Below are positions 34,465 to 39,450 of a stretch of 64,000 nucleotides of DNA, piece by piece. The DNA lies in NCBI GenBank assembly GCA_947373185.1, contig CANBWP010000013.1:6797-70796 (forward strand), written 5' to 3'. Position 1 is the stretch's first letter. The number at the start of each line of letters is the position of its first letter. Source of the stretch: Comamonadaceae bacterium. Its GTDB lineage: Bacteria > Pseudomonadota > Gammaproteobacteria > Burkholderiales > Burkholderiaceae_C. The notes under the pieces are model-generated. The model had not been told where the DNA came from. It searched no databases and saw nothing but the letters and a program-made list of their open reading frames with translations. Position numbers and translations under genes: made by a program.

Positions 34465-35454
34465 TCAATGTTGATGTTGATGCCCGCCTGCTGCAGGTGC
34501 GCCCCCCGCTGGCATTGAAGGCATGGCGGCGTCCAGCGTCAGATCCAGCTGAAACTTGGCGCCCTTGCCGTCCTGAAACTTCAGCGTGACAGGCACTTTG
34601 GCGCCCTTCTCTAAAGGTGACTTCAAGTCCATCAACATCACATGAAAGCCACCCGGCTTTAACTCAACCACCTGACCGGCTGGCAAATCCAAAAAGGGAA
34701 TGGGCGCCATTTTCATGACGTTGCCTTCCATTTTCATTTCATGAATTTCAGCCACCCCAGCGATTGGCGTGCTGACGCTCAAGAGCTTGCTGTTTTCTTT
34801 GGCCACCAACTTCAAGAAAGCACCCGTGGCTTTTTGACCCGTGACAGTAGGCCTCACCCAAGCGTCCGAGACGGCCACATTGGCGTTGCCCGCAGGGGCT
34901 CCTGCCGTGCCTTCGGCTTTCAAAGTCAACAAGGCCGCAGGGTATTTCATGCCCTTGGTCGATGTGCCTGCTGCAGGAATCTCAGCCCAATCGTTCTGAC
35001 CTTTCTCGCAAGTTTGCAAAACACGCAACCAAACAGGACCGGCCTTTTCAGGCAATTTGGTCATGAAAGCGAATTCATCAAAGGCACCATCGGGCAATGC
35101 GGCATCCTTGCTGCTTGCAACCCATTCCATGGCCACCACATCCTCAGACACTGTTTTGCCGTGACTTTGATAGGGTTCAGCCAATTTGGCTTTCGTGATT
35201 TTGAGAGTCCAACCCGTTTTGGGTTGTGGCTTGGCGCCTTCAAAACCTGCAGGAATGAAAACTTTGATACCTGTGGTGGCAGCGCCCTCGCAGCCATGAC
35301 CGATGCGCACAGCACCTTTGTAGTAACTGCCCGACAGCGCGGTTTGCTCGGTCAGCACAGCGTGGGCATGGACTGCTGCAGGAAAGGCCCATGTTGCCAT
35401 GGTGGCTGCACCAAGGATGGCCAATTTCTGAGAGATGTTCAAGAAGTAAGTCAT
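34465..35454 (-). CDS. Fusion protein: YcnI (DUF1775) domain plus PCu(A)C copper chaperone domain, with a Met/His-rich tail
   Basis: After the signal peptide, the predicted mature N-terminus is HAVLTEQ...GSYYKGAVRIGHGCEG (YcnI-like). The C-terminal half carries an exact H-x10-M-x21-H-x-M motif (HEMKMEGNVMKM...GGFHVM). It ends MPSMPAGGAPAAGGHQHQH. Confidence 0.8.
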   Translation of the reverse strand: MTYFLNISQKLAILGAATMATWAFPAAVHAHAVLTEQTALSGSYYKGAVRIGHGCEGAATTGIKVFIPAGFEGAKPQPKTGWTLKITKAKLAEPYQSHGKTVSEDVVAMEWVASSKDAALPDGAFDEFAFMTKLPEKAGPVWLRVLQTCEKGQNDWAEIPAAGTSTKGMKYPAALLTLKAEGTAGAPAGNANVAVSDAWVRPTVTGQKATGAFLKLVAKENSKLLSVSTPIAGVAEIHEMKMEGNVMKMAPIPFLDLPAGQVVELKPGGFHVMLMDLKSPLEKGAKVPVTLKFQDGKGAKFQLDLTLDAAMPSMPAGGAPAAGGHQHQH

Positions 35455-35466
35455 GTTGTTCTAGCC

Positions 35467-37845
35467 TTATTGGATGTCGTATTTGATTTCAGCATGCACG
35501 GTACGCTGTGTGTAGGGATGGAAATTCCAATACTTGTCGTTGTTCAGATTATCGATGCCCACGGCCAGGCTTGTTTGCGCATCGTATTTGTAACGAAGGC
35601 GTGCATCCACCGTGAAGAATTTGCTCACACCCATGTAGGTGAAGCCATTCACATCGGCATTGTTCAGCGTACGGTACTGCGGGCCACTGTAACGTGCTGC
35701 CAAGGTACCGGTCCAAGCAGGCGACATGCGATAAGTGGCCACAGCCGTGGCACGCCAACGCGGAATGTTCGGTTGCTGTTTGCCCAGGGTGTCACCCGCA
35801 ACAGCCACAAAGCCGGCATTCTCTTTGATGATGGAGTCGGTGTAGGTGACACTGCCCGACAAGTCCAAGCCTTGGAGGCCCAGATCTTTCGCGTTCAACG
35901 ATGTTTCTAAACCTTGCGTTGCAATGCGGCCTACATTTTGAACGCGTGAGATGCTGGCATTGGCCACAGGATCAAAGATGCTCTGTGAGAACAAACCGTC
36001 ATGCGTAGACTCTTGGAAATAAGTCAAGCGCCAAGTGGCTTTTTGCCATTCTTTTTCGTAGCTGAGTTCGGTCGTCACTGAGCGCTCTGGCTTCAATGCA
36101 GGGTCATTGATGTAGCGCGAGTTGGTGGTGGAAGTTGCACCATACAACTCGAACACGGTGGGCATGCGAACAGCACGGCCCGCAGAAGCTTTGATGACGC
36201 TGTCGGGCGTTAGCTGATAGGCCAAGGCCGCTTTAGGCGACACAAAATTTTCTTCGCGATCGGCCCACACTTGGTTGTAGCCATTGGCTGCAACCTGCGT
36301 TGTGCCTTTGCTGGCGCGCCAGGTTTCTGAACGCAAGCCCAATACACTCGTCAAACCCGGGGCCATGCGCCATGTGTCTTGCGCGTAGATGCTTTGAGTT
36401 TGCGTTTGTCCGCCGACAAAACTCGACTTGGCACCGGCTGCATCGGTGGTCCAATTGCCAGCGATGTTGGAGGTCAAATAGTTCAATGTGTAGTTGTCAG
36501 CTTGGTAACCGAAGTCAAATACATGCGCCCCCTTCAAGCCCATGGGTCGCCATGTGCCTCGCAAGGCCAAGTTGTTCCAACCTGTTCCCGCGCCATCGGC
36601 CAATGTACCAGCGCCACCCGTTAACGCAGATGGCAAGGTGGCCGTGGCTGCGTTCTGACGCTTTTGGTCTTTGTCGTAATCGTACAAGCTGCCCGCAATT
36701 TCCCAATCAAATTCGCCCTTGGTGTTGGACTTCAAAGACACGCCATGCATGAAGTGAGTGATGCTTTCATTGGTGAGCGCAAAGTCAGCGCCCGTCAGTG
36801 CGGCATATTGCTTGCCATTGATCACAATGGGCCCACTGGTGACAGGTGCACCCGTCGCTGCATTGGTAAGGTAAGTCGAAGAACGGCCTTCAGAAGAGTT
36901 TTGCCAAGTGCCCAAGGTGTAGGTGGCGCGCAAAGTACTTGAAACGTCGTAGGCCACTTTGATCTTGGCGTGGTCTTGTTGGGTGCTGTATTGCGTACCG
37001 GAACCAATGTAGTAGATGTCTGCATTGGCCGTATTTTTATCGGCCAACCAGCCGTTCACCACCACACCCTGGGTGGGCGTTGTACCCGTACTCACGGTGC
37101 GTGTTGCAAAGGTCAATGGCTGACCGGAACTGTTGGTGTGATTCAGGTTGATGAACCAAGACCAGTCGCCATTTTTGTTCCCCATCGATGCACTCGATTG
37201 CCATGCACGGTAACGGGTATCGGTGTTGTACAACTGAAAACCTTGGTTTGAATAACCCACTTTGACATGCGCTTCAAAACTGCTTGGCATGCGCGTTACA
37301 AAGTCCACCACCGCGCCCACCGAATTTCCTGGATACGCGGCAGAAAACGGGCCGTACATCACATCCACACGCTCAATTTCTTCAGGCGTCACCATGCCCC
37401 AACGCGGTGGAAAACTCAGGCCACTGATGCTGTTGCCCAGGTAATTGGAAAGTAAGATGCCGTCCGCATAGACCGCTGATCGTGCAGGATTGCCCGTACC
37501 CGAAGCGCGGCTGGACAAAATTGCGTGGTTGTAATCGCCTTCATAGCGCTTGCGCACCAGCAAGCTTGGAAAATACTTCAATGCATCTTCACTGTCCGTG
37601 GCATTGATTTTCTCTTGCACCTCAGAGCCCTTGATGCTCTCCATCGTGGTGGGAATGTGCGTTGGCAACGAAGAAGGACGACCTGATTGAATGGTCACCA
37701 CGCCCACTTCTTTCACGGGCTGCTGTTCTTGGGCCATCACGGCGCTTGAAAAGGCCACAGACAAAGCCATGACCAGAGGTTTCACCTCAAATCTCGATAC
37801 TGAATTCACTTTGAATTTCCAAAAAATAAACAAGGCGATGCACAA
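35467..37845 (-). CDS. TonB-dependent outer-membrane receptor (likely copper-related, OprC/NosA-type by context)
   Basis: 792-aa ORF with plug and beta-barrel pattern (DALKYFPSLLVRKRY...). The start is uncertain: TTG at 37845, GTG at 37809 or ATG at 37770. Confidence 0.88.
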   Translation of the reverse strand: MCIALFIFWKFKVNSVSRFEVKPLVMALSVAFSSAVMAQEQQPVKEVGVVTIQSGRPSSLPTHIPTTMESIKGSEVQEKINATDSEDALKYFPSLLVRKRYEGDYNHAILSSRASGTGNPARSAVYADGILLSNYLGNSISGLSFPPRWGMVTPEEIERVDVMYGPFSAAYPGNSVGAVVDFVTRMPSSFEAHVKVGYSNQGFQLYNTDTRYRAWQSSASMGNKNGDWSWFINLNHTNSSGQPLTFATRTVSTGTTPTQGVVVNGWLADKNTANADIYYIGSGTQYSTQQDHAKIKVAYDVSSTLRATYTLGTWQNSSEGRSSTYLTNAATGAPVTSGPIVINGKQYAALTGADFALTNESITHFMHGVSLKSNTKGEFDWEIAGSLYDYDKDQKRQNAATATLPSALTGGAGTLADGAGTGWNNLALRGTWRPMGLKGAHVFDFGYQADNYTLNYLTSNIAGNWTTDAAGAKSSFVGGQTQTQSIYAQDTWRMAPGLTSVLGLRSETWRASKGTTQVAANGYNQVWADREENFVSPKAALAYQLTPDSVIKASAGRAVRMPTVFELYGATSTTNSRYINDPALKPERSVTTELSYEKEWQKATWRLTYFQESTHDGLFSQSIFDPVANASISRVQNVGRIATQGLETSLNAKDLGLQGLDLSGSVTYTDSIIKENAGFVAVAGDTLGKQQPNIPRWRATAVATYRMSPAWTGTLAARYSGPQYRTLNNADVNGFTYMGVSKFFTVDARLRYKYDAQTSLAVGIDNLNNDKYWNFHPYTQRTVHAEIKYDIQ

Positions 37846-37872
37846 CCCTTGGGGGGTGCACAGCCAACAAAG

Positions 37873-37892
37873 TCAACGCATGCGCGCGTTGA
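37873..37892 (-). promoter_or_regulatory. Intercistronic stem-loop (TCAACGC-N6-GCGTTGA) between the DUF2946 ORF and the TonB-dependent receptor
   Basis: Perfect 7-bp arms. Lies 14 nt after the DUF2946 stop and 27 nt before the most upstream receptor start. Confidence 0.4.
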
Positions 37893-37906
37893 TCCGTGGG
37901 TTGATT

Positions 37907-38287
37907 TCAGGAAATAGAAGGCGGGCCGCGTGACGGCAGAGGGGGCGCCGTGACCGACGCAATGTGCGCTGCGGCAAGCGGCCGGAGGGCATGCGCTAAA
38001 GCGCTGGGTTTTTCAAATGCCAGGGAATCAGTGTGCAGTGGGATGACAACGGCCGCACACAAGGGGCAGTCCATGCTGGTACTGGCCTGTGTGTCTGTAC
38101 CCTCTTCACCCACGGCCACCATTTTCATGCCGCCCATGCTGCTACACACCATTTGCGTCTCTGTGGGGTGCACGATGGGCGCGGCAATGGCCGCACCAAT
38201 GAACAAAGCAAACCACACCAACACCAGGCGGGCGATGAATTTGTGGGTTTGCGCGTTGAACATGTGGCGTATTATCGCTGAAGCCAT
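37907..38287 (-). CDS. DUF2946-like small membrane protein (CxxC), upstream ORF of the receptor
   Basis: 126 aa. N-terminal [29 protein letters not shown] motif, and Pro-rich C-terminus PPLPSRGPP. Position 5' of a TonB-dependent receptor is typical for DUF2946. Confidence 0.6.
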
Positions 38288-38310
38288 TCCATCCTTCAGC
38301 TTCTCGCATT

Positions 38311-39450
38311 ATGAAAAAAATACTCCTTTTGGGCTCAGGCGAACTGGGCAAAGAATTCGTCATCAGTGCCAAGCGTTTGGGCTGCCATGTCATTGCCTGT
38401 GACAGTTATGCCGGCGCACCCGCCATGCAAGTGGCCGATGAATGCGAAGTGTTCAGCATGCTGGACGAAGCGCCCTTGCGCGCCGCCATCGCCAAACACC
38501 AACCCGATTTGATCGTGCCCGAGATTGAAGCCATCCGCACCGAGGTGTTGTTGGACGTTGAAAAAGAAGGCTTCGAGGTAATCCCCAGTGCACGCGCAGC
38601 CAACCTCACCATGAACCGCGATCGCATTCGCGATGTGGCGGTGGGTTTGGGCGTTCGCACGGCCAAATTCAACTACGCCGAATCCAGTGAAGAACTGCTT
38701 GCTCAAGCCAAAGCCATTGGTTTTCCGGTGGTCATCAAACCTGTCATGAGTTCATCGGGCAAGGGTCAAAGCGTTGCCAAAACCGAAGCCGACATTCAAG
38801 CCAGCTGGGACTATGCGTGTGCCGGCATGCGCGGTGATCGCAAAAAAGTCATCGTTGAAGAGTTCATCAACTTTGAGTTTGAAATCACCCTCCTCACCAT
38901 TCGGCAACGCAATGGCCAAACCTTGTTCTGCCCGCCCATTGGGCATGTGCAAGAACGCGGTGATTACCAATACAGCTGGCAACCACAGGCCATGGCGCCT
39001 GATTATTTAAAAGCAGCCCAAGAGATGGCCGAAAAAGTCACCGCAGATTTAGGCGGTGCCGGCTTGTTTGGTGTGGAGTTTTTTGTCACCGCCAAAGAAG
39101 TCATCTTCAGCGAACTGAGCCCCCGTCCGCATGACACTGGCATGGTGACCTTGATCAGCCAAAATCTCAGTGAATTTGATTTGCACGCACGCGCAGTGTT
39201 GGGTTTGCCCATTCCTGTGATTGAGTGCGTGGAAGGTGCCAGTGCCGTGGTGCTGGCCGACCGTGAAGGCAAGAACCCCAGTTACGCGGGTGTGTCGGCT
39301 GCTTTGCAAGAACCCGGCGTCGATGTCCGCATTTTCGGTAAACCGACCACGCGTCCTTTTAGGCGGATGGCGGTGGCGTTGGCCAAGGGCGATAAAGCCT
39401 TAGAGCGCGCTCGCGCAGCAGCCTCGAAAATCAGCGTGCATGTTTCTTAA
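38311..39450 (+). CDS. purT: Formate-dependent phosphoribosylglycinamide formyltransferase (GAR transformylase 2)
   Basis: 379 aa, colinear with E. coli PurT: [11 protein letters not shown]...PAMQVA...[13 protein letters not shown]...[24 protein letters not shown]. Confidence 0.95.

Follow-up and report, generated by a model that had tools for sequence, protein, structure and literature searches.

A CruR-led operon encoding a TonB-dependent transporter and a YcnI-PCuAC fusion protein in a freshwater Comamonadaceae bacterium

In Bordetella pertussis, the operon cruR-crtA(bfrG)-crpH(bp2921) is headed by the DUF2946 leader peptide CruR (PMC9426467, PMC12914433). Genes behind cruR homologues include those for TonB-dependent transporters (TBDTs), PCuAC, YcnI, CopC, and Sco (Roy 2022, PMC9426467), and genes for TonB receptors, YcnI, PCu(A)C, and PepSY proteins are enriched behind small proteins carrying RAPP or RGPP (Fujiwara, Chiba et al., PMC12992588). 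Here, we describe a three-gene operon of this type, cruR followed by a TBDT gene and a gene for a YcnI-PCuAC fusion protein, in a 64,000-nucleotide (nt) stretch of DNA ("the window") from a Comamonadaceae bacterium (GCA_947373185.1, contig CANBWP010000013.1, positions 6,797 to 70,796 of the forward strand). CruR-led operons with TBDT, YcnI, and PCuAC genes were already described in 2022 and 2025, and every part of the present locus is of a known kind. We read it, with a probability of roughly 0.8, as a copper-starvation operon that would provide cuproenzymes of the periplasm and the membrane with their metal, with the CuA center of the single aa3-type oxidase as the likeliest target. A first-pass annotation of the window, made from the sequence alone, had likewise read these genes as a copper-acquisition unit; the Bordetella DUF2946-receptor precedent that it named is real, and is CruR (Roy 2022, PMC9426467).

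The gene order is nearly universal among relatives. When genomes of the same GTDB family were searched (one genome per genus, 200 genera), 193 of 201 gave a match, and 40 loci were taken from the matching genomes. Searches with the three window proteins located a CruR homologue directly upstream in 35 of these 40 loci, which belong to other genera. CruR was followed in these 35 loci either by the orthologous receptor and then ycnI-pcuAC, or by ycnI-pcuAC at once. The order cruR-(TBDT)-ycnI-pcuAC was also found in most of 71 complete loci from named genomes.

The B. pertussis operon and the present one share a leading DUF2946 peptide with an export signal (putative in the window CruR), a CXXC motif, and R-x-P-P three residues before the stop codon. 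Both also have a C-rich 3′ half of cruR that extends into the spacer, a TBDT gene in second position, and a link, predicted in the case of the window operon, to the supply of haem-copper oxidases. They differ in the arrest motif and spacer, which are RAPP and 162 nt in B. pertussis but RGPP and 61-97 nt with a hairpin here, and in the third gene, which encodes a PepSY_TM protein there and YcnI-PCuAC here.

The pcuABCDE unit of Bradyrhizobium japonicum (PMC12617631; preprint of PMC8424229) is similar in content. It combines a TonB receptor (PcuB), a tailed PCuAC (PcuC), and a YcnI homologue (PcuD), and it is a copper-starvation unit serving oxidase biogenesis, as we propose for the window operon. 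There, however, the proteins are separate, and PcuA and PcuE (periplasmic/cytoplasmic-membrane by description) are made in addition. The descriptions in PMC12617631 and the PMC8424229 preprint include no DUF2946 leader. The window operon encodes no inner-membrane component.

The YcnI-PCuAC fusion protein

The domain assignments of the first-pass annotation (DUF2946, DUF1775, and PCuAC) were examined by the hidden Markov model check that it had proposed, and Pfam matched all three. Residues 31-178 of the fusion protein matched DUF1775 (E 8e-41), residues 195-298 matched PCuAC (E 6e-36), and CruR scored 27.9 bits against PF11162 (DUF2946; gathering cut-off 23.7). The protein is one of the fusions reported by Damle 2021 (PMC8424229), with the same order of signal peptide, DUF1775, and PCuAC. 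When 24 and then 92 homologues were aligned, no substitution was seen at His31, His53-Gly54-Cys55, Cys149, Trp156, or any of the four ligands in the PCuAC domain.

In searches of the PDB, the profile of the N-terminal domain matched Nocardia 3ESM (E 5e-12) and Bacillus subtilis YcnI 7ME6 (E 2e-4). Foldseek gave template modeling (TM) scores of 0.82-0.85 to B. subtilis YcnI (7me6/8um6) and 0.79 to 3ESM. Given cleavage after AVHA, His31 is the first mature residue, as the first-pass annotation had predicted. The profile alignment pairs His31 with the copper ligand His27 of B. subtilis YcnI, and Trp156 with Trp137. The two proteins (7ME6/7MEK for B. subtilis YcnI) are thus alike in fold, mature N-terminal His, and Trp. 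In contrast, Glu50 of the B. subtilis protein aligns with Cys55 of the invariant H53-G-C55, so that the Glu ligand is absent and the window clade has H53-G-C55 and C149 instead. Because the Glu ligand is missing, the earlier proposal of a Cu(II) site as in B. subtilis YcnI is an extrapolation. The B. subtilis protein also has a C-terminal membrane anchor, which is absent from the window protein, a periplasmic protein in a Gram-negative cell.

The presence of Cys55 at the Glu50 position puts the YcnI domain among the DUF1775 domains classed as "His and Trp but no Glu", a class that occurs mainly in Proteobacteria and was left open by Damle 2021 (PMC8424229). We infer that His53 could replace Glu as a copper ligand; Cys55 and Cys149 probably form a disulfide. 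In relatives in which YcnI stands alone (L051, L053, L054, L055, and other split loci), the protein ends in a short His-rich tail such as GHQH, HEHHH, or GHSH. This tail, which is not discussed in the cited literature, may be an extra copper site.

In the PCuAC half, the first-pass annotation had noted an exact copper motif and a Met/His tail. Both were found as described: the motif H238-x10-M249-x21-H271-x-M273 has a single, exact match, and the tail (MPSMPAGGAPAAGGHQHQH) ends in HQHQH, with the terminal HxH nearly invariant among homologues of the fusion protein. Three further Met residues (Met240, Met242, and Met247) lie near the predicted Cu(I) site. The nearest solved relative of this half is AccA of Neisseria gonorrhoeae (9YAH, PMC13006917; profile E 8e-25, Foldseek TM-score 0.84), and the TM-score to Thermus PCuAC 2k6w was 0.76. 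AccA shares the H-M-H-M Cu(I) site, the "track" of extra Met residues, and the His/Met tail; it differs in that it is a stand-alone protein and metalates the nitrite reductase AniA, whereas the window protein adds an N-terminal YcnI domain. In AccA, Cu(I) is bound at the primary site and Cu(II) by the His/Met tail, and the equivalent tail of Bradyrhizobium PcuC is likewise a Cu(II) binder (PMC13006917).

In the AlphaFold2 model, the two beta domains had a predicted local distance difference test score (pLDDT) above 90, and the linker and tail were disordered; the predicted TM-score (pTM) was 0.52. The picture that suits this model best is a pair of independent domains strung on a flexible linker; no fixed interface between them is predicted. 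A relay from Cu(II) in the YcnI domain to Cu(I) in the PCuAC domain is plausible. The first-pass annotation had further suggested that incoming copper might be reduced in the fusion protein. This suggestion found no support: no redox cofactor motif is present in the protein, and a PCuAC chaperone that has a His/Met tail already handles Cu(I) as well as Cu(II) unaided (PMC13006917).

The idea that the fusion is unusual did not survive a survey. YcnI-PCuAC fusions account for ~10% of ~10,600 DUF1775 sequences, are proteobacterial, and were called "intriguing" but left uncharacterised (Damle 2021, PMC8424229). In a collection of 5.8 billion proteins, 577 clusters matched the fusion protein at E ≤ 1e-5, and nearly all of the best 120 of these 577 contained both Pfam domains. 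Ten of the 40 loci described above were fused, and the other 30 had ycnI and pcuAC as adjacent, separate genes; in 8 of these 30 the two genes share a reading frame that a stop codon interrupts. Among the 71 complete loci from named genomes, 18 were fused, namely those of Limnohabitans metagenome-assembled genomes (MAGs), Polaromonas aquatica, several Variovorax, Pseudorhodoferax, Caldimonas, Pseudacidovorax, Ensifer, and Phaeobacter.

A maximum-likelihood tree of both domains required at least two changes between the fused and split states; in it, the sister of the window protein is a split locus (support 100/96). This pairing and the approximately unbiased (AU) test (p = 0.001) rejected the idea that the fusion arose only once. 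Split relatives fill the linker position with an HxH tail on YcnI, then a stop codon and a spacer, then the signal peptide of PCuAC; the tail and the signal peptide are both missing from the fused forms compared (window and L031). Whether the linker derives from the end of the pcuAC signal peptide was ambiguous in the DNA alignment with the split sister, in which ~27 of 38 bases match just 5′ of the domain. These sequence comparisons indicate that the fusion is a recurrent joining of two neighbouring genes, and that the window protein links covalently what relatives produce as two proteins from neighbours on the chromosome. Because ycnI and pcuAC have been joined repeatedly, the two proteins probably work together; a new function arising from the covalent link is not implied.

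Two close comparisons concern the history of this gene. Between window positions 34465-38330 and an uncultured Limnohabitans MAG (L086), the DNA of cruR and the spacer is 99% identical, CruR 98%, and the receptor 96%, whereas the fusion protein is merely 89% identical. A genome of the same genus (G130, locus L041) has split YcnI and PCuAC with 45% identity to the window protein, a receptor with 64%, and CruR with 60%. On these identities, the chaperone part seems to have a history separate from that of the operon's remaining parts, through exchange or faster change.

Leader peptide, spacer, and receptor

CruR agrees with the first-pass description of a 126-residue DUF2946 peptide with a CPLC motif. 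CPLC occupies residues 74-77, RGPP occupies residues 120-123 and is followed by SIS and the stop codon, and the peptide also carries Cys48. Inspection of the sequence revealed an N-terminal basic stretch followed by a hydrophobic segment, a putative export signal. The alignment of homologues favours a start near ATG 38263, which would give 118 residues, although the better Shine-Dalgarno sequence (AAGGA) belongs to ATG 38287.

The CruR homologues of the 35 related loci were aligned. R[GA]PP was present at the C-terminus, 2-4 residues ahead of the stop codon, in all 35, nearly always in the form RGPP, not RAPP, in the same bacterial family. CxxC was nearly always kept, and one row reads CPLS. 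A role of CXXC in copper sensing has been demonstrated for B. pertussis CruR only (PMC9426467). Arrest of ribosomes has been demonstrated for both RGPP and RAPP, and in the B. pertussis CruR stall the two Pro codons occupy the P and A sites (PMC12992588). One related genome (G010) has two DUF2946/cruR genes in tandem (C1:229458-229814 and 230415-230768) 5′ of a single receptor-ycnI locus.

The mRNA strand has an excess of C over G, reaching +19%, from the second half of cruR into the spacer. The same skew was present in 35 of 35 related loci (C minus G, +5 to +22%), and the equivalent C-rich pattern in B. pertussis cruR marks a Rho-dependent terminator (PMC9426467). A GC-rich hairpin of 8 pairs, followed by CUUUGUUGG, begins 14 nt past the cruR stop codon and is part of the minimum-free-energy fold (z = -2.0). 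Comparable strong hairpins lie 3′ of cruR in most relatives, many of them with a clear U-run.

In many relatives, a conserved CUAUUGAAUUCAUAGCGCC-like motif ("AUAGC") opens the spacer 3′ of cruR and is followed by a strong GC hairpin and a U-run. This arrangement was seen in the first 60-90 nt past the cruR stop codon in L044, L046, L050, L055, L056, L058, L061, L062, and L065, and these spacers have the look of classical intrinsic terminators. The window spacer has the hairpin and a weak U-run, and the AUAGC motif is absent from it. The pattern across relatives suggests that CruR stalling in this family may gate intrinsic terminators, unlike the Rho-only model for B. pertussis; termination in the window operon may have an intrinsic or hairpin-assisted component.

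By analogy with B. pertussis CruR, regulation could proceed as follows. At low copper, the ribosome translating cruR would stall at RGPP, 4 codons ahead of the stop, and shield the C-rich 3′ part of cruR, blocking the loading of Rho, and RNA polymerase would then pass the spacer hairpin and transcribe the receptor and chaperone genes. When copper is sufficient, the nascent CPLC would sense it and the stall would be released; Rho would then end transcription in the spacer, perhaps with help from the hairpin.

The receptor matched the Plug (E 1e-10) and TonB beta-barrel (E 2e-43) families of Pfam. Its start is more likely at GTG 37809 (MNSVSRFEVKPLVMALSVAFSSAVMA, then QEQQ) than at TTG 37845, in which case the spacer is 97 nt. 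Orthologues with 45-68% identity lie between cruR and ycnI in relatives. The receptor had been taken to be of the OprC/NosA type. This assignment was ruled out by the absence of a TIGR01778 (OprC/NosA) match among NCBIfam hits at E ≤ 0.01 and the absence of a Cys/Met site: the whole protein contains one Cys, and 27 orthologues have no conserved Cys and no Cys/Met cluster. The invariant residues among His, Cys, and Met are H107, M186, H364, and H776, of which M186 is the sole conserved Met in the alignment. PDB searches gave no close solved structure for the receptor and no CrtA entry; the best match was PhuR (E 7e-10).

Other cruR operons in the same bacterial family have the CrtA-like order cruR-TBDT-PepSY_TM, and their receptors are 22-29% identical to the window receptor over partial alignments. 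In the PMC12914433 supplement, none of 87 homologues is in a YcnI-linked operon. Judged against the receptors of CrtA-like loci, the window receptor probably belongs to a cluster separate from CrtA. In this family, cruR genes head at least four mutually distant receptor clusters (≤30% identity; L071-L085). The genes that follow those receptors encode PepSY_TM, DUF3422, a BNR-like protein, or PCuAC.

Probable copper supply and its alternatives

In the copper-starvation reading, whose steps are drawn from knowledge of the protein families, ionic or chelate-bound copper would enter the periplasm through the TBDT. The fusion protein, once secreted, would capture it at the His-brace-type site at His31, at the His/Met tail, or at both, would hold Cu(I) at the H-M-H-M site of PCuAC, and would hand copper to Sco and CoxB. 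PCuAC is needed for CuA assembly mainly when copper is limiting, and the TonB receptors CrtA and TccA feed haem-copper oxidases (PMC12914433, PMC12617631, PMC13006917). Supply to the aa3-type oxidase under copper scarcity is the most economical reading and fits this conditional requirement for PCuAC (PMC13006917, PMC12617631). The domain identities, the synteny in relatives, and the single copies of CruR, PCuAC, YcnI, COX2, and Sco in a genome lacking PepSY_TM also favour the copper-starvation reading.

Several points weigh against this reading. Copper regulation, transport substrate, metal binding, and target enzyme are all assigned by homology. The Glu ligand of the sole characterised YcnI is missing from the YcnI domain, and the receptor appears to fall in no characterised copper-TBDT family. 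The spacer, at 61-97 nt rather than the 162 nt of B. pertussis and with a terminator-like hairpin, may imply a different mode of termination. In favour of the reading, all three genes are represented in contigs assembled from lake RNA libraries; however, these contigs derive from related strains, and the ones that bridge the two gene junctions belong to runs X21 and X24, which are labelled "METAGENOMIC RNA-Seq" and may hold DNA. These contigs are weak evidence for expression of the operon in situ.

The operon might instead serve copper defence, with the fusion protein buffering periplasmic copper and the receptor taking up an unrelated substrate. YcnI, CopC, and PCuAC-like proteins are indeed found in resistance as well as uptake loci (PMC8424229), and DUF2946-like leaders are also reported at the start of the cutFOG operon of Rhodobacter, which detoxifies copper (PMC8456105, PMC9973294, 10.1101/2025.02.05.636593). 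However, a TonB-dependent importer lies between the leader peptide and the chaperone, and no efflux pump, multicopper oxidase, or CopA gene adjoins the operon in the window. The fusion gene is the sole PCuAC gene of its genome, which has one COX2 and one Sco gene ~8 kb apart on a different contig. Moreover, the characterised CruR-TBDT operon is shut off by copper (PMC9426467). Copper defence is accordingly very improbable in our judgement. We also consider it unlikely, though slightly less so, that the operon imports a copper chelate (a chalkophore or xenometallophore), with YcnI stripping the copper or releasing it oxidatively and then passing Cu(I) to PCuAC in an obligate two-step relay dependent on His-brace chemistry. 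His-brace sites can be redox-active (PMC10952591), the second invariant His (H53) lies near the position of the Glu ligand in B. subtilis YcnI and could complete a bis-His brace, and the repeated fusion of ycnI and pcuAC argues for tight functional coupling. Yet no chalkophore biosynthesis genes were found in the window, the separate YcnI and PCuAC proteins of most relatives imply that covalent coupling is not required, the structural model has no fixed domain interface (low pTM, disordered linker), and His-brace proteins without enzymatic activity, CopC and PmoF among them, are common (PMC8424229).

Within the copper-starvation reading, a more specific combination of proposals is tentative and, taken jointly, rather doubtful. 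In this combination, the receptor would represent a third, uncharacterised copper-TBDT cluster beside OprC and CrtA, working specifically with YcnI and PCuAC; the YcnI domain would hold copper in a bis-His brace of His31 and His53 stapled by Cys55-Cys149; and CruR-RGPP would gate a hairpin/U-run terminator instead of, or besides, Rho.

The locus is a compact example of presumably CruR-controlled copper supply, and its host is an abundant freshwater bacterium whose genome is small (2.8 Mb). The locus has a single leader, receptor, and chaperone and lacks PepSY_TM and a second PCuAC, a simplicity that suits genetic tests. It could serve to address the role of the YcnI domain in Gram-negative bacteria and the paired action of YcnI and PCuAC that the recurrence of the fusion suggests. 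As a whole, it is a tidy but ordinary example that raises no new question; the points that merit attention are the clustering of its receptor, the changed ligand set of its YcnI domain, and the hairpin in its spacer.

Operon layout and genome setting

The positions of the genes and their features are given in Table 1. The three minus-strand genes are separated by 61 nt (cruR-receptor) and 12 nt (receptor-fusion) in the open reading frame (ORF) coordinates, in agreement with the first-pass annotation.

Table 1. Coordinates of the operon genes and their features in the window
Feature	Position	Strand	Basis
cruR, DUF2946 leader peptide, 126 amino acids (aa)	37907..38287	minus	ORF and Pfam PF11162
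CPLC codons, putative copper-sensing CXXC	38057..38068	minus	sequence read; near-invariant in homologues
RGPP codons, putative ribosome-arrest motif, three codons 5′ of stop	37919..37930	minus	sequence read
C-over-G "bubble" on mRNA strand, candidate Rho-loading (rut) region	37870..38065	minus	sliding 78-nt C/G content
GC-rich hairpin, candidate pause/termination site	37873..37892	minus	terminator-like match
TonB-dependent outer-membrane transporter, 792 aa from TTG 37845	35467..37845	minus	Pfam Plug and TonB barrel
YcnI-PCuAC fusion gene, 329 aa	34465..35454	minus	ORF and Pfam DUF1775, PCuAC
Predicted signal peptide, residues 1-30, cleavage between AVHA and H31	35365..35454	minus	sequence; helix 5-20 low pLDDT
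YcnI/DUF1775 domain, residues 31-178; His31, H53-G-C55, C149, W156	34921..35364	minus	Pfam, profile, Foldseek
Flexible Ala/Gly-rich linker, ~residues 179-194	34873..34920	minus	pLDDT < 50 at 182-189
PCuAC domain, residues 195-309	34528..34872	minus	Pfam, motif, Foldseek
Disordered Met/His tail, residues 310-329, ending HQHQH	34468..34527	minus	pLDDT < 50 at 314-329

Upstream of the operon lies the divergent gene purT (ATG 38311, plus strand), 23 nt from the cruR ATG at 38287. Because the two starts are just 23 nt apart, the cruR promoter must sit within purT. A nitroreductase gene and then an MFS gene lie beyond purT; downstream of the operon are a convergent TctC/Bug gene and a second MFS gene. 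A copper role for the flanking genes was ruled out on these identities (MFS, TctC, PurT, nitroreductase, and MFS). The neighbours are unrelated, which makes the three-gene operon self-contained.

The host genome is 2.79 Mb and 99.9% complete. It contains one YcnI (tblastn), and a six-frame search for DUF2946/CruR gave a single match, cruR itself; a whole-genome search found no PepSY_TM protein. Among the loci from named genomes, the nearest relative is an uncultured Limnohabitans. The DNA of the locus recurs across many lake metagenomes, and in some lake strains (contigs from X21 and X24) there is one extra T at 37848, just 5′ of the receptor TTG.

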